The notes: generated by a model not told the origin, from the letters alone. A DNA stretch of 64,000 nt from Gemmatimonadota bacterium (GCA_035687745.1 DASRVA010000023.1:12060-76059); one strand, 5' to 3'. Counted from the stretch's first letter, positions 40,473 through 63,751 are shown. Numbers and translations: made by a program.

Positions 40473-40934
40473 ATGCAACCGAGACGTTATAAAGGCAAGC
40501 CCGCCTCGTCCCGGCGAGGACGCCGGCCACGAGCCGATCGCCTCGACGCGACGTTCGCGGCGCTCGCCGACCCCACGCGGCGGGCGATCCTGGCCAGGCT
40601 CGCCTCGGGAGAGGCGTCGGTGACGGAGCTCGCCCGGCCGTTCGCGATGACCCAGCCGGCGATTTCCAAGCACCTCAAAGTGCTGGAGCGGGCGGGGCTG
40701 GTTTCGCGCGGCAAGGACGCGCAGCGGCGGCCCCGCCGGCTCGAGGCAAGGCCGCTCGCCGAGGCCACCGAATGGCTGGAGGGGTACCGCCGATTCTGGG
40801 AGGGCCGGTTCCAGCGCCTCGACGCCCTCCTCGACGAGCTGAAGGCCGTTCAGAAGGAACTTGGAACGCGCGAAATGAAAAACAGGTCACCCGTGAACAG
40901 AAACCCCATCCCGAAGGGCAGGAGCCACGCATGA
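40473..40934 (+). CDS. ArsR/SmtB-family transcriptional regulator
   Basis: HTH LADPTRRAILARLASGEASVTELARPFAMTQPAISKHLKVLERAGLV. Confidence 0.8.
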   Translation: MQPRRYKGKPASSRRGRRPRADRLDATFAALADPTRRAILARLASGEASVTELARPFAMTQPAISKHLKVLERAGLVSRGKDAQRRPRRLEARPLAEATEWLEGYRRFWEGRFQRLDALLDELKAVQKELGTREMKNRSPVNRNPIPKGRSHA

Positions 40935-47033: not shown

Positions 47034-47309
47034 CTAGGCCTCCTTGAGGTGGCCGTTCACCAGCTTGGTCATCTCGAACATGCTGACCTTGGCCTTGCCG
47101 TTGAAGACCGGCTTCAGGTTCGCGTCCGCGACGATCATGCGCTTGTTGGTCGGATCCTGGAGCTTGTGCTTCTTGATGTAGTCCCAGAGCTTCTTGGTCA
47201 CTTCGGTGCGGGGCTTCGGCTCGGCTCCGACGACCTTGGCCAGCGCGTCGTCGGGGCGCATCGGCTTCATGAAGGCGGGGTTCGGCTTCCGTTTCTTCTG
47301 CTGCGCCAT
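47034..47309 (-). CDS. SWIB/MDM2-domain protein
   Basis: ATG at 47309 (MAQQKKRKPNP...). SWIB core LWDYIKKHKLQDPTNKRMIVADANLKPVF. Confidence 0.75.
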   Translation of the reverse strand: MAQQKKRKPNPAFMKPMRPDDALAKVVGAEPKPRTEVTKKLWDYIKKHKLQDPTNKRMIVADANLKPVFNGKAKVSMFEMTKLVNGHLKEA

Positions 47310-47515
47310 CCTTCGCTCTCCCAGGACGAGGTCAGGGTCGGTGTGACTGGAAACGGTGACGGTGAGGGTGGCGTCCGCGAGCGGACCCGGGGGCAGCGCT
47401 CTGGCCCCCCTCTTCGTAAAACGATCACGGCCCGCGCGCAAGAGCCACGGCCCGGGCCGAATCTAACACCCCGGCTCCCCCGGGCGAGCCCCGGGCAATA
47501 GGTTGGCCGTTCTCG

Positions 47516-48363: not shown

Positions 48364-49674
48364 TTACTGCACCCCGTAAGCGAGCATGGCGTCGGCCACC
48401 TTCCTGAACCCCGCCACGTTCGCCCCCCGCACGTAGTCCACCCGGCCGTTCGATTGCCCCTGCTCCACGCATTGCTCGTGGATCCGGCGCATGATCCGCT
48501 GGAGCCGCTCGTCGATCTCCTCTCTGGACCAGCTCATCCGGATCGCGTTCTGCGTCATCTCGAGCCCGGAGATCGCGACCCCGCCGGCGTTGACGGCCTT
48601 GCCGGGCGCGTGGAGGACGCCTGCCGCCGCCAGCACCCGCGCCCCCTCCGGCGAGACCGGCATGTTCGCGCCCTCGCAGACCGCCCGGCAGCCCCCTTTC
48701 GCCAGCTCGCGCGCGTCTCCCTCCTGGATCTCGTTCTGCGTCGCGCAGGGGAAGGCGAGCTCGGCGGGGATCGACCACGGCTTCTGCCCCGCCCTCCACT
48801 CGAGCCCGAACTCCCGGGCGTACTCGCTCAGGCGCCCATGGCGGTTCGTCTTCAGATCGATCAGCCAGGCGAGCCGCTCGGCGGTGACACCGTCCGGCTC
48901 GTGGACGGTGCCCTCCCGATCCGAGAAGGAGACCACGCGCGCGCCCAGCTCGAGGAGCTTCTCGGCCGCGTACTGGGCCACGTTGCCGGAGCCCGAGACC
49001 ACGCACCTGCGGCCCTCGACACCGTCGTGCTCGCCCAGCATCTCGCGGGCGAAGTACACCGCTCCGTAGCCGGTCGCCTCGGTCCTGAGGAAGCTCCCGC
49101 CGTAGGCGGCGCCCTTCCCGGTCAGTGCACCCGTCCACTCGTTCTGGAGGCGCTTGTACTGCCCGAACAGGTAGCCGATCTCCCTCGCCCCGACGCCGAT
49201 GTCGCCGGCGGGGACGTCGACGTCCTTGCCGATGTACCGGAAGAGCGCGGTCATGAACGACTGGCAGAAGCGCATCACCTCGTCGTCGGAGCGTCCTTTG
49301 GGGTTGAAGTCGGATCCCCCCTTGGCGCCGCCCATCGGCAGGGTGGTGAGGCTGTTCTTGAGGGTCTGCTCGAATCCCAGGAACTTGAGGATGCTGAGGT
49401 TGACGGAAGGGTCGAACCGGAGGCCGCCCTTGTAAGGACCGATCGCGTTGTTGAACTGGACGCGATAGCCGCGGTTCACGTTGACCTTGCCCGCGTCGTC
49501 CTCCCACACCACCCGGAACATGATGACGCGATCGGGCTCGGTCATTCGCTCCAGGATCCGTTCCTCGGCGTAACGCGGGTTCGCCTGGACGACAGGGATC
49601 ACGCTCTCGGCGACCTCGTGGACGGCCTGGTGGAACTCCGGCTCGCCCCAGCTTCGCCGGACCACCTCCTGCAT
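48364..49674 (-). CDS. gdhA: NADP-specific glutamate dehydrogenase
   Basis: Catalytic lysine region LTTLPMGGAKGGSDF. Full-length alignment to GdhA. ATG at 49674. The upstream part of track ORF 48364..50157 overlaps the aquaporin gene and was not used. Confidence 0.9.
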   Translation of the reverse strand: MQEVVRRSWGEPEFHQAVHEVAESVIPVVQANPRYAEERILERMTEPDRVIMFRVVWEDDAGKVNVNRGYRVQFNNAIGPYKGGLRFDPSVNLSILKFLGFEQTLKNSLTTLPMGGAKGGSDFNPKGRSDDEVMRFCQSFMTALFRYIGKDVDVPAGDIGVGAREIGYLFGQYKRLQNEWTGALTGKGAAYGGSFLRTEATGYGAVYFAREMLGEHDGVEGRRCVVSGSGNVAQYAAEKLLELGARVVSFSDREGTVHEPDGVTAERLAWLIDLKTNRHGRLSEYAREFGLEWRAGQKPWSIPAELAFPCATQNEIQEGDARELAKGGCRAVCEGANMPVSPEGARVLAAAGVLHAPGKAVNAGGVAISGLEMTQNAIRMSWSREEIDERLQRIMRRIHEQCVEQGQSNGRVDYVRGANVAGFRKVADAMLAYGVQ

Positions 49675-49688: not shown

Positions 49689-50339
49689 TCAGGCGCTCGC
49701 CTCCGTACCGGGGCTCTGGAACCGGTACACTCCCGCCGCGACGAACGCGCCGACCAGCGGCGCCACCACGTAGAGCCAGGCGTTCGCGAAGGTCCCGCCC
49801 TCGACCAGGCCCTGGAACAGGATCGGGCCGAGCCCGACGGCCGGGTTGAACGCGCCCCCCGAGATCCCGCCGCCCGCGTAGGCGCCGGCCGACACCGTGA
49901 AGCCGATCGCCAGGCCGTAGAAGGAGTTGCCCTTCGTCCCGGGATCCGTGGCCGTGTGGAGGACGACGAGGGCGAGGGCGAAGGTGAACAGGAGCTCGAC
50001 CAGGAGGGCCCCGACGACGGTGGCGGTGGCCCCTGGCGCCGGCGCGTACGTGTCCCAGGTGATGGCCCAGGTCGCCGCGGCCCCCAGGAAGCCGCCCACG
50101 AGCTGGGCAATCCAGTACGGAACGACCTCCCCGGCCCTCATCGCCCCGCGCGTCCACACGGCGAGCGTCACCGCCGGGTTGTAGTGGGCCCCGGAGACGT
50201 GTCCGCCCATGTACACCATGACCATCAGCGCGGACCCGATGGCCAGGGGTGCGCCCGGAACCTGGCCGATCACGACGAGTCCGATCGTCAGCACGAGGAA
50301 GAAGGTCCCGATCGTCTCGGTCAGGAGCTTACGCGCCAT
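49689..50339 (-). CDS. Aquaporin/MIP-family channel
   Basis: Two NPA motifs (GAHYNPAVT, GGAFNPAVG). Confidence 0.85.
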   Translation of the reverse strand: MARKLLTETIGTFFLVLTIGLVVIGQVPGAPLAIGSALMVMVYMGGHVSGAHYNPAVTLAVWTRGAMRAGEVVPYWIAQLVGGFLGAAATWAITWDTYAPAPGATATVVGALLVELLFTFALALVVLHTATDPGTKGNSFYGLAIGFTVSAGAYAGGGISGGAFNPAVGLGPILFQGLVEGGTFANAWLYVVAPLVGAFVAAGVYRFQSPGTEASA

Positions 50340-50452: not shown

Positions 50453-53400
50453 TCAGGGGGCGGTGCCGGCGCGGTCGACGGGCTGGACGTGGGGGCCGAG
50501 GCGGGCATTCCGTGGATGGTCCAGGAACGCTTCCCGCCGGTCGGGGGGCAGGTTTTCCGCGAGAAGAAACATGGCCCGGGCCGCTCTCGACAGAGCCATC
50601 GCCTCCGCCGGGGCGTCCCCGAGCGCGGCGTGCACACCGGCCAGCCGCTCGGCCGCAGCCCGCTCCAGCGAGACGATCCCCATCCGCGCCGCCTGCTCCA
50701 CGACCTGGCCCAGCTCCTGGACCACCCGCGGGTTCGGCTCGGGCGCGGCCTCGGCATCCGCATGCAACCAACGGAGAAGGGTCGAATAGGGAAGGCTCCG
50801 GATCTCGAGCCCCGCTTCCCGCCCGGGATCCGGCCTGCCGGCCCGGATCGCGGCCCGCCGCCGGTGGGCCGCGGCCAGGGCGATCTGGGTGGGAGCGGCG
50901 TGGTCCCGGGCTTCGGCCTCCGCGCGGGCGAATACCAGGACCGCCTCCTCCCACCGGTCCCGGGCGATCAGCAACCGCCCTTCCCGCAGGAGGATCTCGT
51001 GGAGCTCCTCCGGCCTGGCGGTCTCCTCCACGACCGCCCGCGCCTCGACCAGCGTCTCCGCCGCGAGGTCATCGGCGAGCATCCGGTACCAGGCATCGAA
51101 CAGGAAGATCCGGGTCGTGACCCGGTTCACCGGACCGAGCACGGTGTCGCCCCGGTCGCGGCAGATGCGCAGGTGGCGGACCGCGTCGCCGAGCCGGCCA
51201 AGGGCGATCTCGCAGTCGGCCCGGTTCTGGAGCGTCACGTAGCGCGCGAACGACCAGCCGATCTCCTCCAGCACGCGCTCGGCCCGGTCGAGCGTCTCCA
51301 GCGCCTCCCGCCACTCACCGCGCTCGGTCGCGACGCGCCCCAGGTTGTTCAGCGCCGAGTAGCGCATCTGCCGATCACCGATCGACTCCGCCGCCTCGTA
51401 GGCGTCCCGGTAGTACCGCTCCGCGTTGTCCAGATCCTCCCGCAGGTCCAGAAAGACGCTGCCGATGTTGAGCAGGCACTTGGCCATCCCGAGCCGGTCG
51501 CCGTCGCCTTCTCGCAGCTCGAGCGCCCGCGAGATGTGATCGAAGGCGAGGTCGGGCAGCCCCTGGTAGTGATGGACCAGTCCCAGACCGTTGTGGAGAT
51601 CGGCGGCGAGTCCCGGCTCCCCCTCGGGAAGGTTTTCGAGCCCCGCCTCGTAAAGGCGGGCCGACTCGGGCAGGTCGCCGCGATACCAGGCCACCCTGGC
51701 CCGCCGCTCCATGCCACGCACGATCCATTCCCGGCGCTCCTCCACCCGCCCCCGGTCCTCCAGCCGGCCGAACCATATCTCGGCCTCGGCAAGATCCCCG
51801 CGCTGGATCAGGACGTCGCCGAGCGTCCGGGCGAATCCCGCCCGCTCGACGGGATCCGGGAGGGCGTCGGGATCCGGTCCCAGGACCTCCGCGGCCCGCC
51901 GCAGGTACCTCTCGGCGGTCGGCAGATCGTAACGGGAAAACGCGGCCCTGCCGGCGCTCCAGAGGTGGGGGAGCGCCGCTTCGGACAGCCCCGCCAACCA
52001 GTAGTGGTGCGCGAAGAACTCCGCCTCGAGATCGCGACGATCGGCGAAGAGCTCCTCGCCGATCCGGGCCGCCGACTCGTGGAGGACGTTCCGTACGCTC
52101 TGGAGCAATCCCCCGTAGGCCACCTCCTGCATCAGCGCGTGCCGGAACCCCCGCTCCTCCGGGCCGAGCTCCTCGATGAAACCGCGCTCCCTGAGGGCGT
52201 GGACGGCCGGCTCGAAACCGATCGGCTGGGATTCGAGCGCGTACATCCGCGACAGGAGGCGGGTCGGGAAGTGCATCCCCAGAACGGCGGCCATCTGCAG
52301 GAGGAGCTGAAGCGGCGGCTCCAACCGGTCGATGCGCGACTTGATGAGACCCTGGACCGTTCCCGGAACCGAGCGCCGGGCGTCACCGCCGGCATCCGTC
52401 CAGTCTCGCACCAGCTCCTCGAGAAAGAGGGGGTTCCCCTGGCCGCGCCGGATCAGCTCCCGCCGGTCCTCGGGGGCGAGCTCCTCGAGCCGTCCGCCGA
52501 CGAGCGCCTCGGCAGCGGCGTCGTCGAGCGGGCCGATCGTGAGCCGCTCGACCCCGGACAGACGGCCGTTCTCCCCCCCGGGCCTCGAGGTCAGGAGAAC
52601 GGGAATTCCCTTCTCCGTCGTCGCCGGCACGAGGAAGTCCAGGAGCTCCTGGGCCGTCTCGTCGGCCCAGTGGACGTCCTCGAACAGGAGAACCATCCGG
52701 CTCCGCCGGGCGGCGGCCTGGAGCAGCGCCGTCAGCGCGAGCCACCGGTTCTGCCGCGCCGCTTGTGGGTCCTCCCCGGTCGGCCGGACTTCCGATCCGT
52801 CTCCGTGGACCTCGCGCAGGAGGCCGTCGATCCCGCGGCGGTGGGTTTCGAAGGCGGGCCCGAGGAGATCCCGCGCCCGCTCCTCGGCCGAGCCCTCCCC
52901 CTGGCTCGCCAGGCGATCGAAGAGCACGACCTCGGGCGCCCGCTGGCCCGGCAGGCGGATCTGCGAGAAGGCGACCGTGAGCGCCGGGAGTCCGGATTCC
53001 GCCAGGGATTCGGCCACGAGCCGGCTCTTGCCGTTGCCGGCCTCCCCCTCGACGACGAGCGCTCCGGCTGGAGCGGTGCCGGCCCTCTCGAGGAACGCCT
53101 TCAGGCGGGTGAGCTCCTCCTGGCGGCCCGCGAACGGGCTCCACGCGCGCACGGGGCTGGCGCCGCCCCCCGAGTATCGCACGATCCGGAAGGCCCGGAC
53201 CGGCTCGCTCTTCCCCTTCAGGGCAAGTGGCGGCAGCTCGACCTCCTCGAATCGATCCTCGATCCGGCTCTGGACGGCCTCGCTCACCAGGACGGTGTTG
53301 GGCTCGGCCGCCGACTCGAGCCGCGAGGCCACGTTGACCGTGTCCCCCAGCACCGTGTACTGGAGCTGCATCTCCGACCCCAGGTGAGCGGCCACGACCT

Positions 53401-53908
53401 CGCCCAGATGGATGCCGACCCGGAGCGCCAGCGGGGTATCGGCGCCGGCGTTGTAGTCGGCCAGCACGTCGAGCATGCCGAGCCCTGCCAGCACGGCGCG
53501 CTCGGCGTCGTTCTCGTGGGCCAGCGGGGCGCCGAAGAGGGCCATCACCGCGTCGCCGATGAACTTGTCGACGTACCCCTCGTAGTCGTAGACCGCGCCG
53601 GCCAGACGCTGGAGGAGGGTGTTCATGAGGAGCGTCACTTCCTCGGGATCGAGCCGCTCGCTGAGCGCCGTGTATCCCTTGAGGTCGGCGAACAGGACGA
53701 CCACCTCCCGGCGATCGCCCCGGAGCTGCGTCCGGGCGGCCTCGAACTTGGCCCTGAGCCCAGGGGGGAGCTCGATGGGCGGGGCGACGCCCGCGGCCTC
53801 GGGAAGCGCCGACTCCGCCTGAAGTGGAACCCGGGTTCCACATTCGGGGCAGAACTTTGCCGCTTCGGGGAGACCCGCACCGCACTCGATGCAGAAGCTC
53901 ATGGGCAC
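50453..53908 (-). CDS. Zinc-ribbon + class III nucleotidyl cyclase (CHD) + STAND/AAA+ ATPase + TPR multidomain protein
   Basis: N-terminal CIECG...CPECG zinc ribbon. Cyclase motifs VVVLFADLKGYT...GDAVMALFG. Walker A GEAGNGKS. C-terminal TPR repeats. Confidence 0.85.
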   Translation of the reverse strand: MPMSFCIECGAGLPEAAKFCPECGTRVPLQAESALPEAAGVAPPIELPPGLRAKFEAARTQLRGDRREVVVLFADLKGYTALSERLDPEEVTLLMNTLLQRLAGAVYDYEGYVDKFIGDAVMALFGAPLAHENDAERAVLAGLGMLDVLADYNAGADTPLALRVGIHLGEVVAAHLGSEMQLQYTVLGDTVNVASRLESAAEPNTVLVSEAVQSRIEDRFEEVELPPLALKGKSEPVRAFRIVRYSGGGASPVRAWSPFAGRQEELTRLKAFLERAGTAPAGALVVEGEAGNGKSRLVAESLAESGLPALTVAFSQIRLPGQRAPEVVLFDRLASQGEGSAEERARDLLGPAFETHRRGIDGLLREVHGDGSEVRPTGEDPQAARQNRWLALTALLQAAARRSRMVLLFEDVHWADETAQELLDFLVPATTEKGIPVLLTSRPGGENGRLSGVERLTIGPLDDAAAEALVGGRLEELAPEDRRELIRRGQGNPLFLEELVRDWTDAGGDARRSVPGTVQGLIKSRIDRLEPPLQLLLQMAAVLGMHFPTRLLSRMYALESQPIGFEPAVHALRERGFIEELGPEERGFRHALMQEVAYGGLLQSVRNVLHESAARIGEELFADRRDLEAEFFAHHYWLAGLSEAALPHLWSAGRAAFSRYDLPTAERYLRRAAEVLGPDPDALPDPVERAGFARTLGDVLIQRGDLAEAEIWFGRLEDRGRVEERREWIVRGMERRARVAWYRGDLPESARLYEAGLENLPEGEPGLAADLHNGLGLVHHYQGLPDLAFDHISRALELREGDGDRLGMAKCLLNIGSVFLDLREDLDNAERYYRDAYEAAESIGDRQMRYSALNNLGRVATERGEWREALETLDRAERVLEEIGWSFARYVTLQNRADCEIALGRLGDAVRHLRICRDRGDTVLGPVNRVTTRIFLFDAWYRMLADDLAAETLVEARAVVEETARPEELHEILLREGRLLIARDRWEEAVLVFARAEAEARDHAAPTQIALAAAHRRRAAIRAGRPDPGREAGLEIRSLPYSTLLRWLHADAEAAPEPNPRVVQELGQVVEQAARMGIVSLERAAAERLAGVHAALGDAPAEAMALSRAARAMFLLAENLPPDRREAFLDHPRNARLGPHVQPVDRAGTAP

Positions 53909-54025
53909 AAGCCTTGACCTGAGCGTTCCAAGCCGGGTATTGTAGGGTGCGCTGTCATTTCCCCACGGTAACCCTCCAGGCCCGACAGCATCCAGGTGTG
54001 CGCACTCTTCCTCCCAGGAGGTAGC

Positions 54026-55270
54026 ATGCTTCGAGCCTTTCTATTGTCACTGAGCCTGGCCGCAACCGGGTTTTTCCTGGCCTGCAACGAAGGGTCGGTC
54101 GACCCTGTCGCCTCGACCGGCGAGATCGCGGGTGCCGGCAAAGTCGACTGCCCGCTCACGGAGGAGATCGCCGACGTCTTCAGCGACGCGGGGCTGAAGA
54201 ATGCGGTCACCAAGCAGTGCCAGAACATCGCCGGCGAGCTCGATCAGGGAGACACTCCCGGCGCCGTCGAGAAGGCCTTCAGCCTGATCGACAAGATTCT
54301 CGGGCACCACGCGGACGGAGAGACGACAGGCGATGACGAGGCCGCCGCCACTCTCCTGAACGCGCTGCTCGAGTTGGTCGGCCTGGAGGGCATCTTCCCG
54401 GCCACGGTCGACGAGAATACGGGGGGCGGCACCTGCGACAGCGGCGGCTGCACGATCGTGAACCAGAGCGGTCTGGCGGGCATCAGCGTTCCGCCGCAGA
54501 CGTCCGAGGGAATCGGCATGTGCTACATCACCTTCAACCTGCTCGATTTCAACCCGGACCTCTTCGCCGGCTTCGACAACTACCCCTTCCAGTTCGATTA
54601 CGAGATCGTCTGCGCGGACGAGGCGACCGGCGGTTTGGAGCTCGCCCAGGAAGAGGCGATCTACGACCCGCCCGCCATCGTCGGGGTCTGCTTCGCCGAC
54701 CCGCCGCTGGGACCGACCCTCGAGGAAGTTCCGAACGAGAACCGGCAGCTCGCCCACCTGCCCGACGGGGAAGAGGAGCCCGAGCTCCTGCCCGTCGCGG
54801 AGGCCACCTTCCTGAGCGACGAGGACTGCGCGGAGGCCAGCGACGGCGGGGAGGCCTCGCTGCCCTTCCGGGCTCTCGCCAAGCTCGAGCCGATCTCCGA
54901 GTTCTTCGTCTCGCCGCTCTGGGCCAACCCCGGCCGGCTGGGAGGCGCGATCGCAGCCCACAGCCCGATAGGCCCGGTGGACAACCGGGGGGTGGAGGAG
55001 GACGGTGGCATCGAAGGCACGGTGATCGGTTGCTTCGAAAGCGTCGTCGCCGGCGCGCAGGTCGATCTCTTCACCAGTGGTGAGGAGCTGTTCGGCTCGA
55101 CCACCAGCGACGCCAGCGGGTTTTACAGCTTCACAGAGGTCCCCCCGGGCGACTATTTCCTGACAGCCTCGTCCCCTGGTCTCACTTTTTCGTCCGAGGA
55201 GGCGACCGTCGTCTCGGGCGAGACAACGCAGGTGAACATCGGACCGCCCACCTCGGGTTGCATCGGCTAG
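54026..55270 (+). CDS. Lipoprotein, paralog A (C-terminal carboxypeptidase-regulatory-like beta-sandwich)
   Basis: ATG at 54026 with SD CAGGAGGT. Lipobox FFLAC. C-terminal VIGCFESVVAGAQVDLF...SGFYSFTEVPPGDYFLT region. Paralogous to 55599..56915. Confidence 0.65.
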   Translation: MLRAFLLSLSLAATGFFLACNEGSVDPVASTGEIAGAGKVDCPLTEEIADVFSDAGLKNAVTKQCQNIAGELDQGDTPGAVEKAFSLIDKILGHHADGETTGDDEAAATLLNALLELVGLEGIFPATVDENTGGGTCDSGGCTIVNQSGLAGISVPPQTSEGIGMCYITFNLLDFNPDLFAGFDNYPFQFDYEIVCADEATGGLELAQEEAIYDPPAIVGVCFADPPLGPTLEEVPNENRQLAHLPDGEEEPELLPVAEATFLSDEDCAEASDGGEASLPFRALAKLEPISEFFVSPLWANPGRLGGAIAAHSPIGPVDNRGVEEDGGIEGTVIGCFESVVAGAQVDLFTSGEELFGSTTSDASGFYSFTEVPPGDYFLTASSPGLTFSSEEATVVSGETTQVNIGPPTSGCIG

Positions 55271-55301
55271 CACCTTTCGGGCTGGGCCGGAACGCGAAGT
55301 C

Positions 55302-55336
55302 GGGGGCGATTCCTCAGGAATCGCCCCCTTTTCTTG
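55302..55336 (+). terminator. Rho-independent terminator after lipoprotein paralog A
   Basis: Perfect 12-bp stem GGGGGCGATTCC-tca-GGAATCGCCCCC followed by TTTTCTTGT. Confidence 0.6.
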
Positions 55337-55598
55337 TGGATTCAGGAAGCGGGGCTCGGCCGAATCCCGCCGAAGTGGAATGGGAATTCCCATGTGCGCG
55401 GACGGCCGCTTCCGTTTCCGTGGCCGCTCCCTACCACCCCTCTACAGCCGCCCGCCCCGCCTTTCCGTGGTGACGGAAAACGTCTTGCAGCCACCCCGGA
55501 GGCTCTCGTATGCTTGCGTTCCCTCGTGCGATGCGCGGCTCTCGACCGCGCGGTACTTCCCCCGGGCAGCGAGACCCCCTCCTCGCCAAGGAGGCTAT

Positions 55599-56915
55599 AT
55601 GCATCGCACGCTCCATGTCGTCCTGTTCCTGTCCTCGACCGCGCTCCTGTCCGCCTGTCAGGGATCGGGCGACCAGCTCCCTTCCGCTCCGGCCTCCGGC
55701 GAGGTTTCATCCAGCCCCGAGGCGGAGCAGATCCAGGAGCTGATTCGGGCCGTCTTCCCCGAGCCGGGCCTCGAGGACGCGACCCTGGCGCGCTTCCGCA
55801 ACATCGAGCGCAAGCTCGGCCAAGGGCTGACCGATGAGGCGATCGAAATGATGTTCGCCGAGATCGGGTTCACGCTCCATCATTACGAGAAGGGTCGGCT
55901 GGAGGGTGATCCCGGCCCGCTCATCAATGCCTGGCTCGCGTTCGTCGGGCTCGATCCCATCGCGCCCGATCTCGATGACCCGGACGCGGCGTTCGTGATG
56001 TGCGTCGGCGCAGAAGGATGCCGGGCCATTACCGGGACCAGGTTCGCGGGCGTGGTGTTCCCTCCCGGCGCCCTTCCCGGCACGCACTTCGTGTCGATCC
56101 GGCGGCTGGGGAACGATCCCGGTCCCTTCGACGATTTCGGCTTCCCGGTCGGCGAAGGGTCGTTTCCGCTCTTCTACGATTTCAGCATCACTCCGGAGAC
56201 CGGCTTCGGCCCGGGTGTGGTCGGGGGCGTCTGCGTCGTGGACCCGCCCGACCCGTTCGCGCCCCCCGATCCGGTCGTCGGTCGGCTGCGGCTAGCCCAT
56301 CTGGTGGAAGGGGCGGGGGGACCCGAGGTCGAGATCCTGCCCCTCGCGAACGCCGACTTCCTCGACTGCACGGGGGCCTCCACGGCGCCGGCCCTGACCG
56401 GTCTGGACGCGTGGGGGGCGCGGACCCTGGCGGCGTTCGAGCCCCTGTCCAACTTCCTGGTGGCGCCCCTCTGGGCTTCGCCGGGAAGGCTCGGGGCCAC
56501 GATCGCGGCGTTCAGCCCGTTCGGGGCCGTCGATCCCGAGTTCGAGGAAGGGCCGGGAGAGCCGGTGCCGACGACGACGATGCTCGTATTCCAGGATCCG
56601 ACGCTGATCGCCGGGCAGGTCACGACCGCGACCGCGACCGTGGCCCCACCGCCCGACGATTCCCTGGCCCCTTTCGTCAACATCGTGTTCTCGAGCCTGC
56701 CGGGCGGGGCCGGAACGACGGTCGTCGCACCCCTCGAAGACGGGGAGGCCGTCATCACGGTCAAGTGCGACCCGCAGAACCAGTTCCCCGACGACGCGGA
56801 CGTCGAGGTCCGGGTGACCGTCTTCGCGCGCGCGGTCTTCCCGGGGGTGGAAGGGTTCCTTCCCAGCGCCTCGAACTCGTTCCAGATCCTGGCCTGCTCG
56901 GCGCCCATCGGGTAG
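55599..56915 (+). CDS. Lipoprotein, paralog B
   Basis: ATG at 55599 with SD AAGGAGG. Lipobox LLSAC. Shares blocks with paralog A (LAHL..G...PE...LP.A.A.FL.......A....L....A...EP.S.F.V.PLWA.PGRLG..IAA.SP.G.VD). Confidence 0.65.
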   Translation: MHRTLHVVLFLSSTALLSACQGSGDQLPSAPASGEVSSSPEAEQIQELIRAVFPEPGLEDATLARFRNIERKLGQGLTDEAIEMMFAEIGFTLHHYEKGRLEGDPGPLINAWLAFVGLDPIAPDLDDPDAAFVMCVGAEGCRAITGTRFAGVVFPPGALPGTHFVSIRRLGNDPGPFDDFGFPVGEGSFPLFYDFSITPETGFGPGVVGGVCVVDPPDPFAPPDPVVGRLRLAHLVEGAGGPEVEILPLANADFLDCTGASTAPALTGLDAWGARTLAAFEPLSNFLVAPLWASPGRLGATIAAFSPFGAVDPEFEEGPGEPVPTTTMLVFQDPTLIAGQVTTATATVAPPPDDSLAPFVNIVFSSLPGGAGTTVVAPLEDGEAVITVKCDPQNQFPDDADVEVRVTVFARAVFPGVEGFLPSASNSFQILACSAPIG

Positions 56916-56946
56916 TCGGGATCCTGCATCCCGGTCCGAAATCAAG

Positions 56947-56980
56947 AAGGGGCGGCCGCGAAACGCGGTCGCCCCTTTCT
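56947..56980. terminator. Bidirectional terminator hairpin between convergent genes
   Basis: AAGGGGCGGCCGCG-aaa-CGCGGTCGCCCCTT with T-rich flanks on both strands. Confidence 0.5.
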
Positions 56981-57000
56981 CAGGTCTCCGATGCCCGGCT

Positions 57001-57864
57001 TCAGTCGTCGAGCGCCGTCTCCGCGATCGCCGAAGGGACGTGGTAGTCGACGAGCTGGAGCTCGACGGCAGAGACCTCGCCGCCATGGCCGTAGGCGAAC
57101 GACGTGAACCCGAGTCCGGGGACGAAGGTCCAGACGGCGTGCCGGGAGGCCGTTCGCTGGCTCACGCTGTAGAGAACGGGATCGGGGATCTCCTCGCTGC
57201 CGCGGACGGCGCGCAGGTCGGCCGGTCCCTCGTCGACGACCGACCAGCATGCGGCCGCCGGCGTGTCAGGGGTCATCGGCGGGCAGATCGGTTTCCCGCC
57301 CCGAAGCGGAAGCTCGAGCACGAACTCCTCGGGAAGGGCGAGCCCGTCCAGCGTGTCCTCGCGATCCTGGACCCGCCGCCACACGTCCCAGGCCCGCTGG
57401 CCGCCGACCAGGAAGACGCGGGGACCGGCGTTCTTGCGACCCCGGAGCAGAAGCACGTAGGTGCCCCGCGCGCGACCGTGCTGGGACCCGAGCAGATCGT
57501 AGGGGTGGCCTTCCAGCATGGCCGCGGTCCAGCCACGGCGGTGCTTCACGTCGGTGACCTCGCTCGTCCAGGTGACGTGCTCCCGGTAGATCCCGATCCG
57601 GTGCCGGGGGATCCACCAGACCTGCCCGACGTAGGTCCAGCTGCTTCCGATCTCCAATGGGAACGCGGGCGGTCGACGGGCCGGGTCGTGCGTGGGATGG
57701 GCTGGCGCGGGCGTGCGAGGGGCCGGCGCGGGCTCGACCGTCTGCGCCTCCGCCAGACGCTGAATGAAGGCGACCGCCAGCGCGACCACCAGAAAGACGC
57801 GCAGGAGCGCCCGGCAAAGTGCCGCCGGGTCGGTCCCGGTGCGAGGGGTTGGTGAGTCGATCAT
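57001..57864 (-). CDS. Hypothetical membrane-anchored protein
   Basis: N-terminal hydrophobic helix LLRVFLVVALAVAFI. No recognizable domain. Confidence 0.55.
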   Translation of the reverse strand: MIDSPTPRTGTDPAALCRALLRVFLVVALAVAFIQRLAEAQTVEPAPAPRTPAPAHPTHDPARRPPAFPLEIGSSWTYVGQVWWIPRHRIGIYREHVTWTSEVTDVKHRRGWTAAMLEGHPYDLLGSQHGRARGTYVLLLRGRKNAGPRVFLVGGQRAWDVWRRVQDREDTLDGLALPEEFVLELPLRGGKPICPPMTPDTPAAACWSVVDEGPADLRAVRGSEEIPDPVLYSVSQRTASRHAVWTFVPGLGFTSFAYGHGGEVSAVELQLVDYHVPSAIAETALDD

Positions 57865-57945
57865 ATAGGGCTTTATGTAAGCGAATCTGACCGATGGGCA
57901 CCGCTCGTCGGGCCCGGGGGAAAGTTCGTGCAGGAATCACGCCGC

Positions 57946-58371
57946 TCAGGAGAGCGGAGGCGGGCCGTCTCCGAGCCACTCCTCGAGGCGCCGCCCGATC
58001 TCGTCCCGCGCCCGTCGGAAAGCGTCCAGACGGTCCGCTTCGGACCCGCCCGTGCGGGCTGGATCCTCGATCGGCCAATGGAGCCGGCGCACCGATCCGG
58101 GGAAGACGGGACAGACTTCCTCCGTGCACAACGTCACCACGACGTCCACCCGGTCGACCGGGATCTCGTCGACCGACTTCGAACGGTGGTTCGAGATGTC
58201 GATCCCGATCTCGGCCATCGCGCGGACGGCGAGCGGATTCACCGAGGCCGGTTCGGACCCGGCGCTGTAGACACGGGTTCCGGGGGGCGCCAGGCGCCGG
58301 GCAAGACCTTCGGCCATCTGGCTGCGCGCGGAGTTCGCGACGCACAGGAAGAGAAGACCGTCCGAGGTCAT
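57946..58371 (-). CDS. Low-molecular-weight phosphatase family protein (ArsC-like arsenate reductase/LMW-PTP)
   Basis: P-loop [16 protein letters not shown] (C-x5-R). The second Cys of the thioredoxin-coupled ArsC P-loop is replaced by Ala. Contains LCTEEVCP. Confidence 0.75.
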
Positions 58372-58384
58372 CTACCGAGCCTAC

Positions 58385-61300
58385 ATGACACCCGACGGGT
58401 CCGGCCAGCGGCCGTGCATGCGATCACCAGCGTCTCCAATAGATTCCCGGCTCATGCGATGCCCCCGATGCCGAACGGCGCTCGAGTCCGGCGCCCGTTT
58501 TTGCTCCGCCTGCGGAGCCGCCGTGGCGATTCCGGGCGGATCCGACGGGCCGTCGGCTGGATCACCGGCTGAGGACCAGACCCGACTCGTGACCATCCTG
58601 TTCGCCGACCTGAGCGGCTCGGTGGCCGCCACCCACGGCCTGGATCCCGAGGACGCCGTAGGTCGTGTGAACCAGACCCTCGACCTGATGGCGCGCTCGG
58701 TGACCGCTCACGGGGGGCGCGTCGACCGGTACCTGGGGGATGGCCTCCTCGCCCTCTTCGGCACACCCCGCGCTCACGAGGACGACCCTCTGCGTGCGAT
58801 CAAGGCGGCGATCCAGATCCGCGACGCGATCGGCGCCACAGGCCTCACGGCCACCGTCGGGATCAACACCGGCGAGGTGTACGTCGGCCGGATCGGCGGC
58901 GACGCCCACCGCGAGTACTCGGCGATGGGACCCGTGGTCAATCTGGCGGCGCGTCTCCAGTCGAAAGCCCGGGCCGGCCAGATCCTGACCGGCGAGGCGA
59001 CCTACCGGCTCGCGCGGCGGGCCTTCGGGTTCTCGCCGCTCACCCTGCAGATCAAGGGTGTGCCCCACCCGGTCGTGGCGTACGCGGTCGAGCAGCCGCT
59101 CCCCCATCCCGAGCTGGCGCGCGGGATCGAGGGGATGAGCGCCGAGCTGACGGGCAGGGCCGGAGAGATCGCGCGGCTCGTCGAGGCGGTCGAAGGTGTC
59201 GGCTCCGGCGGTCGGGCGGCGGCGATCGTCGGCGAGGCGGGGGTTGGAAAGTCGCGGCTCCTCTCGGAGCTCAAGAGCCGCTGCGAGGCGACCGGAGCCC
59301 GGAGCGAGCCCATTCTCTGGCTCGAGGGCCGCTGCTTCGAGAGCACCCTGTCCGCCGGATATGGGCCGTTCGTGGACCTCCTGAGGAGCCACTTCGCGTG
59401 GGGCATCCGGGCCGATCCGGCGGAGCGCGAGGCCCGGGTGGCGGGATCGCTGGAGGCGATGGTGTCGGCCGGGAACCTCGACGCTGAGCGCGCGGGCGAC
59501 CTGGAGGCGGTCCTCCTGCACCTCCTGGCCGCCGGGGGCGGGACACGAGGGGGACCCCTCGTCGGCGCTTCGCCCGAGCTGATCCGCGACCAGACCTTCC
59601 GCGCCGTGCGCGATCTCTTGCGGGCGCTGGCGGGCCGGCGTCCGGTGGTGGTCGTCCTCGAGGACCTCCACTGGGCGGACACCCTCTCGATCGAACTGGC
59701 CGCCACGCTGCTCGATGACCTGGACGAGCTTCCCGCGCTCCTGCTCTGCGCCTATCGCCCGGAGGCCCGACCGCGGATCCGGCTCGTGGAGGGGGCCCTC
59801 GAGCGGCTCTCGGCCGAGCGCCGCCTCCGGATCGACCTCCGGCCCCTGTCGGCGGACCACACCCGCGGGATGCTTTCCTCGCTGCTCGGCGGAGAGGCGC
59901 TTCCCGAGAGCTGGCGTGCGGCGATCCTCGAAAAGGCCCAGGGGAATCCGTTTTTCGTGGAGGAAGTGGTGCGCTCGCTGGTCGACGACGGCCGCCTCGT
60001 GCGCGAGAACGGCGGCTGGCGGGTCGCTCGCGGGCTCGTAGATCTGGACGTTCCGGCGACGATCCAGGGGATCGTCCTCAGCCGGATCGACCGCCTTTCG
60101 GAGCCGCTCAAGGGAATCCTGCAACGCGCCTCCGTGATCGGGCGGGCCTTCGGCACGGAGCTGCTGTCGGCGGTGTCGGAAGACCACCTCGATCTCGAGG
60201 TCGCGCTCCGGGAGCTGGAAGGTGTCGACCTGATCTACCTGGAGCGGGTCGCCCCGGAGGAGCAGTACTCGTTCCGCCACGTCTTCACGCGCGACACCGT
60301 GTACCGGAGCCTTCTGAAAGCCCGTCGAGCCGCCCTGCACGGTACGGTCGGAGAGGCGATCGAGCGTCTCTACGCCGATCGGCTCGACGAGCACATCGAG
60401 GAGCTCGCCCATCACTTCGAACGCTCGACGGACGCAGTGAAGGCGGCGGAGTATCTCGTCCGGGCGGGCGAGAAGGCGACCGCCGCGTACGCCAACGAGG
60501 AGGCCTTCGCCTATCTCGAGCGGGGTCTCGGGCGCCTCGATGGCGCCCTGTCCGGCGAGCGCGAAGCATGGGCCGGAGAGGTCCGCCGGCGCGCTCGGGT
60601 CTGCCTCGGAGACCTGCTCGAGCGGACGGGTCGGCACGAGGAGGCGGTCGCGGCGTTCCAGAGCGTTCTCGCCGAGATGGGGTCGCAGGATCCTCCGTCG
60701 CGAGCGCGGCTCCTGCGCAGGATCGGCGCGAGCCTCCAGATCCAGCGTCGGTTCCCGGAGTCATTGGCGGCCTTCCAGGAGGCGTTGGACGTGCTCGCCG
60801 GAACGCCGTCCGCCGGCGCCGAGGATGGATGGCGTTCCGAGCGGCTCGACACCGTGCTGGGAAAGCTGATGCTCCATTACTTCATGGCCGCGCAGGAGGA
60901 GATCGCGAGCACGATCGCCCGGTATCGAGACGAGTTTCTGGCTCACGGCTCCCTCCTCCAGCGCGGGCGGCTCTACAACATCATGGCTGTCGCCGGTCTC
61001 CAGCGGGAACGCTACGTCGCATCGTCCGAGACCGTGGAAAGCGCCAGGCGGGCCTGGGAGACGATCGAGCCGAGCGGCGTTCTCCACGAGGCCGGTCACG
61101 CCCGCTTCGTCCACGGCTTCGCCTCCATGTGGGCCGGACGGCTGGAGGATGCCGAGCGCGAGCTCTCGGCCACGCTGGCTCTCGCCGAGCGGATCGGCGA
61201 CGTCACCCTGGAGTCTCGGTGCGTCACCTATCTGGCGTTGACCCATCGGAAGCAAGGCGACGTCCCGGCGGCCCGCCGGTACGCGCTCCGCGCCCTGGAG

Positions 61301-61684
61301 GTCTCCGAGGCGGGAGGGATGACCGAGTACCTCGCGGCGGGCCACGCGCACCTGGCCTGGGCCGCGGGTCGGGAAGGACGATGGGACGAGGCGGAGCGTG
61401 AGGGCCGGATCGCCCTGGAGCTTTGGGAGCAGATCGGGGGGCCCTACCGCCTCTTCCTCTGGATGCCGGTCTGGCCTCTCCTGGGAGCGGCTCTGGCGCG
61501 CGGTCGCCTTGATGATGCCGCACGCCACGCGCGGGTTCTCCTGGACCCCGAGCGCCAGCCGATGCCGGAACCGCTCCGGGAGGCGCTCGAAGGCGCCGTA
61601 GCGGCGGTCGGGAAGAAGGAGACCGACGCCCGAGCGCTCTTCTCCACGGTGGCCGACCTGGCGCGCCCCCCCGGCTACCTGTAG
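58385..61684 (+). CDS. Zinc-ribbon + class III nucleotidyl cyclase (CHD) + STAND/AAA+ ATPase + TPR multidomain protein
   Basis: CPRC...CSAC zinc ribbon. VTILFADLSGSV...GDGLLALFG cyclase motifs. Walker A GEAGVGKS. TPR tail. A start at the in-frame ATG at 58454 (MRCPRCR) is more plausible given the 13-nt gap to the divergent gene. Confidence 0.85.
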   Translation: MTPDGSGQRPCMRSPASPIDSRLMRCPRCRTALESGARFCSACGAAVAIPGGSDGPSAGSPAEDQTRLVTILFADLSGSVAATHGLDPEDAVGRVNQTLDLMARSVTAHGGRVDRYLGDGLLALFGTPRAHEDDPLRAIKAAIQIRDAIGATGLTATVGINTGEVYVGRIGGDAHREYSAMGPVVNLAARLQSKARAGQILTGEATYRLARRAFGFSPLTLQIKGVPHPVVAYAVEQPLPHPELARGIEGMSAELTGRAGEIARLVEAVEGVGSGGRAAAIVGEAGVGKSRLLSELKSRCEATGARSEPILWLEGRCFESTLSAGYGPFVDLLRSHFAWGIRADPAEREARVAGSLEAMVSAGNLDAERAGDLEAVLLHLLAAGGGTRGGPLVGASPELIRDQTFRAVRDLLRALAGRRPVVVVLEDLHWADTLSIELAATLLDDLDELPALLLCAYRPEARPRIRLVEGALERLSAERRLRIDLRPLSADHTRGMLSSLLGGEALPESWRAAILEKAQGNPFFVEEVVRSLVDDGRLVRENGGWRVARGLVDLDVPATIQGIVLSRIDRLSEPLKGILQRASVIGRAFGTELLSAVSEDHLDLEVALRELEGVDLIYLERVAPEEQYSFRHVFTRDTVYRSLLKARRAALHGTVGEAIERLYADRLDEHIEELAHHFERSTDAVKAAEYLVRAGEKATAAYANEEAFAYLERGLGRLDGALSGEREAWAGEVRRRARVCLGDLLERTGRHEEAVAAFQSVLAEMGSQDPPSRARLLRRIGASLQIQRRFPESLAAFQEALDVLAGTPSAGAEDGWRSERLDTVLGKLMLHYFMAAQEEIASTIARYRDEFLAHGSLLQRGRLYNIMAVAGLQRERYVASSETVESARRAWETIEPSGVLHEAGHARFVHGFASMWAGRLEDAERELSATLALAERIGDVTLESRCVTYLALTHRKQGDVPAARRYALRALEVSEAGGMTEYLAAGHAHLAWAAGREGRWDEAEREGRIALELWEQIGGPYRLFLWMPVWPLLGAALARGRLDDAARHARVLLDPERQPMPEPLREALEGAVAAVGKKETDARALFSTVADLARPPGYL

Positions 61685-62643
61685 TCAGCCCCCTGCGCGG
61701 CAGCGACCATGTCCCGTGCGAGCTCCCGCATTTCCTCGGGCTCGAGGAGCTCGGCTTCGGGACCGTACGAGAGCACGTGGCGGACGATCCAGCGCGGGTC
61801 GGCGACCCGGTGGCGGACGATGATCGAGCCGTCGGGCCGCTCTTCGACCTCCTCGCGCTCGATGATCCAGCGGGCGATCTGGCGCGAGTAGCGGACGGTC
61901 GCCTCGACCTCCTCGCCGGCCCGGAACACGGCGCCCTCCTCGACGTAATCCGCCGGATCGAAGTCGCTCGGGATCTCGAACGTCTCGGCCGTGGGCTCGG
62001 CCTCGAGCACACGGTCGAGACGGAATACACGCACGGCGTCCGCTTCCTCGGAATGACCGATGACGTACCAGTGGCCGCGGGAGAATACGAGCGCATAGGG
62101 GGCCACGAGCCGGCGCTCGGGCTCCGATTCGCCGGGCTTGAGATAGGCGAGACGACACCGGCAACGCTCGACCGCGCCGTTCCGCACGAGCGCGAGCAGA
62201 CCGTTTCCGTGCGGATCGCCGCCGTCGAGCGCGAAGCTCGCCGTCATGGGCTCGGCGGGCACGGACGCCAGTCCCGCATCGAGGCGCCCCGCGAGCGCGA
62301 GCAGCTCCTCGCGCCTGGCGCCCTCGGTCCCGTCCGCCAGGAGCCTCAGCCCGAGCGCCAGGGCCAGCGCCTCACGCGGGGAGAGCCGGACCGGACGCCG
62401 GAACTCGCCCGTCGTCCAGACCGTCACCGCGTCCTCCTCGACCGAGATCTCGAGGTCCGTGACCCAGCCGGCCGGATGATAGTAGTCGCGCGCGGTCACC
62501 TCCTCGATGTCACGGAGGATGCGCTCCCGACTGACACCCAGCTCCGCCGCCAACTCGGCCAGGGATGCGCCTTCCGGACCTGACGCCCGGGGGACCAGGT
62601 AGAGGATCCGCTCGAGTTGTCGGGACGCGAGCTCCGCGGCCAC
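61675..62643 (-). CDS. WYL-domain transcriptional regulator (PafC-like)
   Basis: N-terminal HTH (LERILYLVPRASGPEGASLAELAAELGVS) plus WYL/WCX regions. Confidence 0.75.
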   Translation of the reverse strand: MAAELASRQLERILYLVPRASGPEGASLAELAAELGVSRERILRDIEEVTARDYYHPAGWVTDLEISVEEDAVTVWTTGEFRRPVRLSPREALALALGLRLLADGTEGARREELLALAGRLDAGLASVPAEPMTASFALDGGDPHGNGLLALVRNGAVERCRCRLAYLKPGESEPERRLVAPYALVFSRGHWYVIGHSEEADAVRVFRLDRVLEAEPTAETFEIPSDFDPADYVEEGAVFRAGEEVEATVRYSRQIARWIIEREEVEERPDGSIIVRHRVADPRWIVRHVLSYGPEAELLEPEEMRELARDMVAAAQGADYR

Positions 62644-62644
62644 C

Positions 62645-63751
62645 CTAGCGGTCCCCGGCGTACAGGGCCGCCACCTGCTCGACCAGGTCCGCGTATTCCC
62701 GCCGTAGCTCCGGCGGATCCACGATCTCGGCCTCGCCGCTCAGGGAGAGGATCCAGCGCAGGAACGGGTTCACCTGGTGCAGCCGGAAGGTGCGCACCGA
62801 CGAGCCGTCGGCGGCCGTCTCGTCGGGCTCGCCGTACCCGTTGCGCTCCACCCACAACGACGTGGGGAAGTCGAACCGGACGCGGGCGACCAGCGCAGCC
62901 TCCTCCCCCTCGCCCAGCTCCCAGGCTTCACGGTTTCGATAGGCGTTCAGATCGAAGTCCCCGGGCACCACGTAATCCGGCGTGTCGGGCGTCTTCCTGT
63001 TGGGCTCGGGATCTTCCATCCGGTCGACGCGAAAGACGCGCCTGGCGTCACGCAGGGCGTCGTGCCCGACCAGGTACCAGTTGCCGCCCAGGAACAGCAG
63101 CCCGTACGGGGCGACGTCGCGATCCGTCGGCTTCCCGCGGTAGATCCCGTGGTAACGGAAGCGGACCCGCTTGCGGGCCTGCAGGGCGTCGTTGAGGACC
63201 CGTAATCGGTCGCGTACCTCGCCAGCCTCCGGCCGGTCGAGCGCGAGCACGGCGTCCGGCCGGCCGGGCCCCAGGTCGAACGCCAGCTTGCGGAGGGCCG
63301 AACGCGCCTCCTCCCGCAGCAGGAAGGACGGGATCGCCGCCGCGAAGGAGAGCGCGTCGCGGGCGGCGTGTGCCTCCTCGGGCCGGATGTCGAACACGTC
63401 CGCGCGTGGGGCCCCGCCCGGTGCGGCGGCCGAGGCATCGCCCCCGCCGCCGATCAGCCTCAGATAGGGCAGGTAGAAGTCGCGGCGCGCGAGGCGATAG
63501 CCCGAGGTCTGCTCGGCCCCCCGCACGCTGAACTCGACCGTCTCGATCGGGATCCCTAGCTCCCTGAGCTCCTTCTTGTCGCGCTCGAACATGCGGCGGA
63601 CGCTCTCGTCGGCGGTCGGGTCGCCGTCCGGGGCCCGTGCGTACGCCGGGACCGCCTCCATGATCTCGTCCACCGAGACCGGATAGTGCCGCCCGATCAG
63701 GAAGGCGATCAGGTCGAGCCACCGCTGGAGTTTCGTGATCTTTTCGGTCAC
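62645..63751 (-). CDS. WYL-domain transcriptional regulator (PafB-like)
   Basis: N-terminal HTH (KLQRWLDLIAFLIGRHYPVSVDEIMEAV), WYL domain, 1-nt gap to the downstream WYL paralog. Confidence 0.75.
   Translation of the reverse strand: MTEKITKLQRWLDLIAFLIGRHYPVSVDEIMEAVPAYARAPDGDPTADESVRRMFERDKKELRELGIPIETVEFSVRGAEQTSGYRLARRDFYLPYLRLIGGGGDASAAAPGGAPRADVFDIRPEEAHAARDALSFAAAIPSFLLREEARSALRKLAFDLGPGRPDAVLALDRPEAGEVRDRLRVLNDALQARKRVRFRYHGIYRGKPTDRDVAPYGLLFLGGNWYLVGHDALRDARRVFRVDRMEDPEPNRKTPDTPDYVVPGDFDLNAYRNREAWELGEGEEAALVARVRFDFPTSLWVERNGYGEPDETAADGSSVRTFRLHQVNPFLRWILSLSGEAEIVDPPELRREYADLVEQVAALYAGDR

Follow-up and report, generated by a model that had tools for sequence, protein, structure and literature searches.

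This analysis concerns a divergent pair of genes, G1 and G2, each encoding a giant protein that joins a nucleotidyl cyclase domain of class III to a STAND-type nucleoside triphosphatase (NTPase), and the two lipoprotein genes, lipo1 and lipo2, that lie between them. The genes occupy part of a 64,000-nucleotide stretch of DNA of a Gemmatimonadota bacterium (GCA_035687745.1, DASRVA010000023.1:12060-76059), which is referred to here as the window and from whose first letter all positions are counted. The window is ~70% G+C; genes were called by third-position GC, and domains were then assigned with Pfam. The outcome agrees with the layout given in a preliminary description of this DNA, in that G1 and G2 diverge across an island that encodes two paralogous lipoproteins, a 287-residue protein and an ArsC-like phosphatase. 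The sole gene link at this locus that goes beyond plain synteny is the one between G1 and the divergent lipoprotein gene beside it. The features of the island are the following:

50453-53902, minus strand: G1, cyclase-STAND giant, 1149 residues (Pfam and exact public match, HET6340863.1)
50909-51703, minus strand: TPR/MalT-like sensor region of G1 (TPR_12, E 1e-20; TPR_MalT at residues 782-999)
52595-53137, minus strand: STAND-type P-loop NTPase (AAA_16) of G1 (PF13191, E 7e-18)
53204-53710, minus strand: class III cyclase domain of G1 (PF00211, E 1.7e-30)
53831-53896, minus strand: C4 zinc ribbon of G1, C6/C9/C20/C23 (Zn_Ribbon_1, E 3e-6; cysteines read from the translation)
53903-54025: intergenic region between G1 and lipo1, with the lipo1 promoter and a conserved block of ~30 nt
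54026-55270, plus strand: lipo1, lipoprotein (start supported by a conserved ribosome-binding site)
55302-55336, plus strand: intrinsic terminator 3' of lipo1, a 12-bp GC-rich stem followed by TTTTCTT
55599-56915, plus strand: lipo2, lipoprotein paralogue of lipo1, 438 residues (HET6340865.1; start taken from the public protein)
57001-57864, minus strand: 287-residue exported protein, in an operon with the ArsC-like gene (single N-terminal hydrophobic segment)
57946-58371, minus strand: ArsC-like/low-molecular-weight phosphatase, divergent from G2 (LMWPc, E 3e-20)
~58454-61684, plus strand: G2, cyclase-STAND giant, start uncertain (58385 or 58454; Pfam)
58577-59038, plus strand: cyclase domain of G2 (PF00211, E 5e-15)
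59144-59740, plus strand: STAND NTPase (AAA_16) of G2 (PF13191, E 5e-20)
60593-61525, plus strand: TPR/MalT-like sensor region of G2 (TPR_12, E 4e-15; TPR_MalT at residues 883-1047)

Lipo1 and four other proteins of the window are exact matches in NCBI records, and the length of the public protein fixes the start of G1 at 53902. G2 has three candidate starts, none of which corresponds to an exact public protein; its start is probably M24 (58454), as judged against an 82-bp gap in the related locus L001 (L numbers designate loci used for comparison).

The giants: architecture, catalytic residues and family

The four-part architecture ascribed to both giants at the outset (zinc ribbon, class III cyclase, Walker-A STAND NTPase, TPR array) is recovered by profile search as well as from motifs. 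In G1, Pfam places Zn_Ribbon_1 at residues 5-26, Guanylate_cyc at 67-235, AAA_16 at 258-438 and TPR_12/TPR_MalT at ~736-1000 (in a 1151-residue numbering that starts at 53908); in G2, the corresponding segments are 26-46, 65-218, 254-452 and, for the TPRs, 737-1047 (in a 1099-residue numbering that starts at 58385). The ribbon had been called a double CxxC zinc ribbon. Two CxxC knuckles are indeed present, but they make up one single C4 ribbon. The Walker A sequences are GEAGNGKS in G1 and GEAGVGKS in G2, and the Walker B sequences LLFEDVHWAD and VVLEDLHWAD, respectively (pattern hhhhEDxHWAD; all read from the translations). Both proteins thus have the marks of the STAND class: a Walker A of the form GxxGxGK[ST], a Walker B of the form hhhh[DE]D and a C-terminal TPR sensor. 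Neither giant contains a transmembrane (TM) segment, and neither matches LuxR/GerE or another helix-turn-helix (HTH) family in Pfam at E values up to 0.01.

The catalytic positions of the cyclase domains were located by alignment to solved cyclases and by reading out the equivalent columns in 92 homologues. In G1 these positions (D75, K115, D119, T185, N192 and R196) are all canonical; the closest solved relative of this domain is CyaB (3R5G, E 2e-31), and the pair equivalent to K115/T185 is present in 9/9 G1 orthologues of the read-out. Adenine specificity is associated with a Lys and an Asp (or, in class IIIb, a Thr). G1 has this combination, and because all of the canonical adenylyl cyclase residues are in place it is predicted to be a complete, Lys/Thr (class IIIb-like) adenylyl cyclase whose product would be cyclic AMP (cAMP). 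G2, to which the Cya2 cyclase (2W01, E 1e-30) is closest among solved structures, has the set D-R-D-S-N-R, that is, the metal-binding Asp pair, the Asn and the Arg are kept and the specificity pair is Arg/Ser in place of the adenine-specifying residues. The Arg/Ser pair is found in 3/3 G2 orthologues of the read-out, including that of L008 at 52% identity; it is conserved in G2 orthologues at 52-91% identity and among the 92 homologues is limited to them. Because it is the same in all three orthologues, down to 52% identity, the pair is, to judge from these alignments, under selection. The residues of catalytic chemistry being intact and the base-specifying pair replaced, the product of G2 is not predictable. 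Reading the specificity residues, which had been proposed as a check, therefore yields cAMP as the predicted product of G1 and no prediction for G2. With its Arg/Ser pair, G2 would allow the rules of base specificity in class III cyclases to be tested cheaply by biochemistry.

The window contains a third cyclase gene, which had likewise been noticed:

2-2305, minus strand: third cyclase, running off the window (Pfam)

Its product combines a cyclase domain on the cytoplasmic side with a single TM segment and, in a periplasmic domain, TPRs; the TM segment and the TPRs agree with the first description. The cyclase domain is degenerate, with the Lys replaced by Ala and the Asn by His (read from the translation), and there is a sub-threshold match to TIGR04510, "peptide modification system cyclase".

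The cyclase-STAND architecture is widespread and not special to this locus: a metagenome scan finds 386 stretches that encode relatives of the giants. Among distant full-length homologues (25-37% identity), Guanylate_cyc and AAA_16 are present in 9/9, TPRs in 8/9 and the zinc ribbon in 3/9. The NCBI name of G1 says only that it is an "adenylate/guanylate cyclase domain-containing protein", and a literature search on Gemmatimonadota cyclases found nothing useful. G1 and G2 are 32% identical over 734 residues (E 1e-64), whereas G2 is 35-37% identical to unrelated metagenomic proteins (E 1e-116) and thus closer to these than to G1. In terms of sequence relationships, G1 and G2 are not a duplicated pair but two old and distant members of one family of soluble, multidomain signalling enzymes that is widespread; recent tandem duplication of the giants is ruled out by the same two comparisons.

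Conservation of the locus and of the G1-lipoprotein pair

The order AddAB, PafB, PafC, G2, ArsC-like gene with the 287-residue protein gene, lipoprotein gene(s), G1, MIP, GDH is kept in L001, L008, L094, L095 and L096, which are Gemmatimonadota metagenome-assembled genomes (MAGs) or assemblies forming one syntenic clade. The flanking genes of this order in the window, beyond the island itself, are:

48364-49674, minus strand: GDH (glutamate dehydrogenase; Pfam)
49689-50339, minus strand: MIP-family channel (Pfam)
61675-62643, minus strand: PafC-like WYL-domain protein
62645-63751, minus strand: PafB-like WYL-domain protein

Two further genes of the window may be recorded here. A small SWIB/MDM2-domain protein is encoded at 47034-47441 (minus strand), and the same position is occupied in L005 and L094. 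A Uma2-family putative endonuclease gene (21731-22321, plus strand) has a zinc metallopeptidase gene on one side and the Suf/NifU iron-sulfur cluster operon (22493-28960) on the other. An Rfam search of the whole window yields tRNA-Asn only.

The arrangement of giants around lipoproteins is present in six loci (the five just named and L002), with common proteins 35-91% identical, so that the expectation of conservation in relatives is borne out; nor are the intervening lipoproteins housekeeping genes, the other possibility that the preliminary description had allowed for. The genes of the giants belong to the chromosome of a Gemmatimonadota clade and are passed on vertically, and the arrangement is mostly inherited synteny. 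Identities between the window and L094 are as follows:

GDH, 86%
PafB, 81%
ArsC-like protein, 80%
PafC, 76%
MIP, 76%
G1, 70%
287-residue protein, 62%
G2, 60%
lipoprotein, 35%

Two proposals about the giants are not supported by these comparisons. The first, that the paired giants are a co-evolving module, is at odds with their 32% identity, with the closer relationship of G2 to other proteins and with L095 (6655-9865), in which G1 and two lipoprotein genes are intact but the ArsC-like gene is missing and a frameshift near 8261-8268 splits the G2 orthologue. (The split of G2 in L095 reflects either decay or an error in assembling the MAG.) The second, that the giants co-evolve with the secreted paralogues, is not borne out by the much lower conservation of the lipoprotein (35%, against 70% for G1 and 60% for G2) or by the TPR region of G1, which is not hypervariable. 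Lipoprotein copy number varies from one to three across loci, and a PMT_2 glycosyltransferase gene lies between the lipoprotein genes in L001-L004 and beside one in L096; the window has none.

The MIP and GDH genes follow G1 on the same strand, at gaps of 113 nt (G1-MIP) and 14 nt (MIP-GDH). No terminator was found in the G1-MIP gap, in a scan that did not cover the MIP-GDH junction, and the three genes may form an operon. MIP-GDH is conserved in L001, L005, L014 and L094; MIP is also present in L095, in which the contig ends just past it. On the other side of the island, the ArsC-like gene is confirmed as encoding a protein of the low-molecular-weight phosphatase family. It has the public name "arsenate reductase ArsC" and contains C10-X5-R and a TLCTEEVC Cys pair; it scores 138 bits against TIGR02691 (thioredoxin-coupled arsenate reductase ArsC; cut-off 174.3), and its Cys spacing appears to differ from that of classical ArsC. 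These genes, together with an ArsR-family regulator elsewhere in the window (40473-40934), might be read as an arsenic or osmotic stress module with the ArsC-like reductase and the MIP channel as outputs and the cyclases as stress sensors. That is very improbable: both the ArsC-like protein and the AqpZ-like MIP protein fall below their NCBIfam cut-offs (the latter well below), ArsB and Acr3 are lacking, the ArsC-like gene is absent from L095, and the ArsC-like and MIP genes belong to separate transcription units, at a distance of 8 kb.

The remaining island gene, at 57001-57864, had been taken to encode a membrane protein, but its product contains no more than a single hydrophobic segment, which lies at the N-terminus and is succeeded by AEA-QT; it is exported or anchored rather than polytopic. 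It has no match in Pfam, NCBIfam or PADLOC. It is conserved at 55-93% identity with two invariant Cys, and its 23 homologous clusters come only from records that are labelled Gemmatimonadota or unlabelled. An AlphaFold2 model (predicted local distance difference test score, pLDDT, 58) is too poor for fold assignment.

The suggestion that the locus is a STAND-type defence switch fares no better. On that view the giants would be the sensors, and the products of the island genes the effectors, of an anti-phage system that uses cyclic nucleotides and resembles Pycsar or the STAND proteins of the Avs type. PADLOC PycC models do match the cyclase domains of both giants (best E values 6e-30 and 2e-14), Avs proteins sense by the same logic of STAND joined to TPR, and WYL-domain proteins adjoin G2. 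However, PycC enzymes carry the class III catalytic motifs (PMC11224242); the profiles match both giants because these motifs are held in common, and such matches are expected of any PF00211 domain. Apart from them PADLOC returns only a generic TPR model for the giants, no Avs profile match, and nothing for the island proteins. Pycsar consists of a cyclase together with an effector that is a receptor for cyclic pyrimidines and in which a domain binding cyclic nucleoside monophosphates (cNMP) is fused to a TM or TIR domain (PMC11224242). No cNMP-binding or TIR domain is found among the ~56 open reading frames (ORFs) of the window scanned against Pfam, nor is there a pore effector. Beside the giants there is neither a receptor gene nor an effector gene, and their cyclase architecture is far removed from that of Pycsar. 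Finally, the locus lies in stable core synteny (AddAB/GDH/MIP) and not in a variable or defence island, and the WYL-domain proteins are PafB/PafC-like and stand beside AddAB in all relatives. An anti-phage function is barely credible.

The link between G1 and the lipoprotein gene is of a different kind. Ten loci extend far enough to show what lies upstream of a G1 orthologue (the window, L001, L002, L005, L006, L014, L015, L016, L094 and L095; G1 identity 53-90%), and in all of them it is a divergent lipoprotein gene of the same family, at a distance of 120-180 bp. The pair persists where its other neighbours have been replaced, which is why the link is taken to exceed synteny: in L016 citrate synthase and transporter genes stand beyond the lipoprotein gene in place of the rest of the island, and in L015 the next gene after the lipoprotein gene, on the same strand (1410-2759, minus strand), encodes a class III cyclase that passes the membrane several times and has the canonical K/D residues.

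The intergenic region that the two genes have in common is also conserved. A σ70-like promoter, TTGACC-18-TATTGT (53914-53943, plus strand), faces lipo1; it is the sole promoter-like site in 11.5 kb and is kept in 5/6 orthologous regions. A block of ~30 nt (CACGGTAACCCTCCAGGCC..GACAGCATCCAG, plus strand) is kept in 6/6, most weakly in L002, and is retained with a few changes at 60% G1 identity; the ribosome-binding site of lipo1 is conserved as well. A stem, GCTG(Y)C...G(R)CAGC, flanks the block in five of the six sequences, but no structure is claimed for it; RNAalifold applied to the 5' region of lipo1 gives -6 kcal/mol with a positive covariation term, which is weak support for structure. 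The link between G1 and the lipoprotein may be one of co-regulation, or of regulator and target.

A rival is that giants, lipoproteins, 287-residue protein and ArsC-like protein are functionally unrelated neighbours in a conserved block of one clade. In its favor, the flanking housekeeping genes keep the same order and are often better conserved than the genes between them (GDH, PafB and MIP in the L094 comparison), and the association is lost at a distance: among 80 fetched loci, none of those with more distant cyclases or cyclase-STAND proteins (L017-L093) has such a lipoprotein, and none of the distant lipoprotein family members (L007, L009-L013, L097) has a cyclase neighbour. Against pure synteny stand the survival of the pair through the replacement of its neighbours in L015 and L016, and the intergenic elements that are conserved at 60% G1 identity. 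On balance it is rather unlikely, though it has to be given real weight.

The lipoprotein family

That lipo1 and lipo2 are paralogues, as first described, is evident from 32% identity over 343 residues (E 1e-31). Both have lipoboxes (FLAC and LSAC). They belong to a family that is defined by an N-terminal region of ~320 residues and comprises 372 clusters at 50% identity. Among 50 family members the lipobox Cys is near-invariant and two further Cys are invariant. Pfam has no model for this family, and a family profile run against PDB sequences matches only the signal peptides of lipoproteins, including BamD. (A search for relatives of the locus with an 11-sequence lipoprotein alignment returned only L008.) The most conspicuous feature of the family is the motif A-x-P-G-x-L-G-G-x-h-S-[S/A]-F-S-P-F-G-A-V-D, in which (in lipo1 numbering) Ser323 is conserved in 50/50 members, Phe322 in 45/50 and Ser or Ala at position -2 in 36/50. 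Lipo2 has the canonical A-F-S-P-F-G-A-V-D; in lipo1 the motif reads A-H-S323-P, with His replacing Phe.

An AlphaFold model of the lipoprotein consists of a helical bundle and a beta-sandwich, with pLDDT >90 for residues 50-280, and puts the invariant Ser where the sandwich ends on its C-terminal side, in the turn that joins the last strand to the one before it. In fold searches the sandwich matches ZU5 domains and the GAIN domains of adhesion G-protein-coupled receptors (GPCRs); Foldseek ranks ZU5 first, weakly. At the level of sequence there is no ZU5 match in Pfam or among PDB sequences, and the ZU5 link rests on fold. ZU5-type domains self-cleave at HF/S (PIDD, Nup98) or SF/S (CARD8, NLRP1) (PMC3210808). 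With these autopeptidases (PIDD, the FIIND of NLRP1/CARD8, Nup98, GPS/GAIN) the lipoproteins share the sandwich fold and an [S/A]-F-S-P at its C-terminal end. The [H/S]-F-S/T/C motif is thus found in the family, and in lipo1 its Phe is missing. The modelled position of the motif suggests that the ZU5/GAIN-like domain probably self-cleaves at Phe-Ser.

What follows the conserved part is exchangeable. The C-terminal domains found are:

window (lipo1): CarboxypepD_reg
P0002, P0007, P0010 (L005) and P0014: Big_3_5
L012 and L013: RCC1
L009: FG-GAP
L006: no family assigned

An exchange can be seen directly by comparing the window with L001, in which 1.95 kb of unrelated sequence (10179-12130) replaces window positions 55004-55373 between flanks of ~89% identical DNA. 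The breakpoint lies ~13 residues past the invariant Ser; the window version consists of CarboxypepD_reg and the terminator, and that of L001 of an unrelated C-terminal region (no Pfam match) and the PMT_2 gene. The lipoproteins are thus fast-evolving, polymorphic surface proteins of variable copy number that are probably self-processing and glycosylated. ZU5, GPS and Nup98 have been grouped as a single superfamily, whose bacterial members occur in polymorphic toxins and in secreted or surface proteins with adhesion modules (PMC3482391). The variable C-terminal domains after a conserved part are a further likeness to that superfamily; the lipoproteins differ from it in being lipid-anchored and short (~400-600 residues) and in having Ig-like or propeller domains, rather than toxins, as C-terminal modules. 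Self-cleavage at Phe-Ser, if true, would extend ZU5/GPS-type autoproteolysis to ordinary bacterial surface lipoproteins with exchangeable C-termini, and would bear on the proposed bacterial origin of ZU5/GPS-type eukaryotic signalling and cell-death domains.

The fold matches invite a more far-reaching reading, namely a sensory module that spans the envelope. The lipoprotein would be the extracytoplasmic sensor, its last beta-strand would hold the exchangeable, ligand-binding domain, and cleavage followed by shedding or engagement of the C-terminal part would be relayed through a membrane partner to the STAND cyclase (or to the membrane cyclase of L015), with G2 making a different nucleotide: a bacterial counterpart of signalling from adhesion GPCRs to cAMP. 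The matches to ZU5 and adhesion-GPCR GAIN domains, the invariant Ser after Phe in the last-strand turn and the obligate link to G1 orthologues (10/10) are all compatible with such a module, as are two gene neighbourhoods: that of L015, in which the lipoprotein gene precedes the membrane cyclase gene, and that of L009 (8001-14603; also L010 and L011), in which the gene of a MASE1 histidine kinase comes 79 bp after that of a 1618-residue family member with FG-GAP repeats. The difficulties are several. G1 is a soluble protein that lacks membrane and periplasmic segments, and a relay protein would have to be postulated; the lipoprotein diverges far faster than G1, whose TPRs do not show matching variability; other members of the lipoprotein family have no signalling neighbour; and autoproteolysis is only predicted, with lipo1 having His at position -1, a change of the type that cripples CARD8 cleavage (PMC3210808). 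The trans-envelope module is quite unlikely.

Interpretation and comparison with known systems

We favour, with moderate confidence, the explanation that G1 and G2 are two STAND-gated cyclases of a widespread family, vertically inherited, that they form neither a dedicated two-giant module nor a phage-defence system, and that the link between G1 and the lipoprotein is regulatory. As to how such enzymes might work, the properties of STAND proteins and of class III cyclases suggest that a ligand would engage the TPR arm of the giant, that this would license nucleotide-dependent oligomerisation of the NTPase, and that oligomerisation would bring the N-terminal cyclase domains into dimers (which the active sites of class III cyclases require). 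The cyclic nucleotide so made would be read by receptors encoded elsewhere.

Several points weigh against this explanation. The activation mechanism is drawn by analogy only. G1 has neither a TM segment nor a signal peptide in its sequence, so that it would have no direct contact with an exported lipoprotein, and it has no recognisable DNA-binding domain, which leaves a direct link of regulator and target without a mechanism. The loci with G1 orthologues perhaps all belong to one phylum, and inherited synteny may make up part of the 10/10; on the downstream side of G1, MIP-GDH is likewise conserved wherever it is visible. The K/T pair is present in 30/39 homologous ORFs longer than 700 residues, a frequency that is biased towards G1-like cyclases by the G1-derived patterns used for the metagenome scan. 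Three leads are worth keeping: the obligate pair of G1 and lipoprotein, the Phe-Ser, ZU5/GAIN-like lipoprotein family with exchangeable C-termini, and the Arg/Ser pair of G2. If none of the three holds, the locus is a case of well-conserved synteny around two ordinary signalling enzymes.

Among known proteins, TIGR03903 ("TOMM system kinase/cyclase fusion protein") is the top NCBIfam match of both giants and covers their cyclase and ATPase segments. The scores of 183.7 and 245.5 bits are far below the cut-off of 705.75, and the giants differ from this family in having no kinase domain and no TOMM genes nearby. The solved stand-alone class III cyclases CyaB of P. aeruginosa (3R5G) and Cya2 of Synechocystis (2W01) resemble the giants in that the metal-binding, Asn and Arg residues align, and the Lys/Thr of G1 is the pair found in CyaB; neither has STAND or TPR segments, and the Arg/Ser of G2 stands against Glu/Gly in Cya2 and Lys/Thr in CyaB (read from the alignments).

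There is a close resemblance to the mycobacterial cyclase-ATPase-TPR-LuxR proteins Rv0386, Rv1358 and Rv2488c and, more broadly, to STAND regulators of the MalT/LAL clade, with which the giants share the order of cyclase, MalT-like P-loop ATPase and TPRs and a size of ~1100 residues. Rv0386 has 1085 residues, with cyclase and ATPase domains and ~10 TPR units; its group is reported to have adenylyl cyclase activity and a guanylyl side activity that depend on a Gln-Asn specificity pair, with the roles of ATPase and TPRs described as unstudied (bioRxiv 10.1101/2024.03.06.583649). Environmental bacteria have cyclase-STAND-TPR proteins in abundance and Mycobacterium tuberculosis has them too, and the inputs to their ATPase and TPR segments are obscure; a G1 with an obligate, conserved gene partner provides a concrete handle on the input or output of an enzyme of this type. 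The giants of the window differ from the Rv0386 type in having an N-terminal C4 zinc ribbon, in belonging to a different phylum and in ending without a LuxR/GerE HTH; their output should therefore be a nucleotide only, and not transcription.

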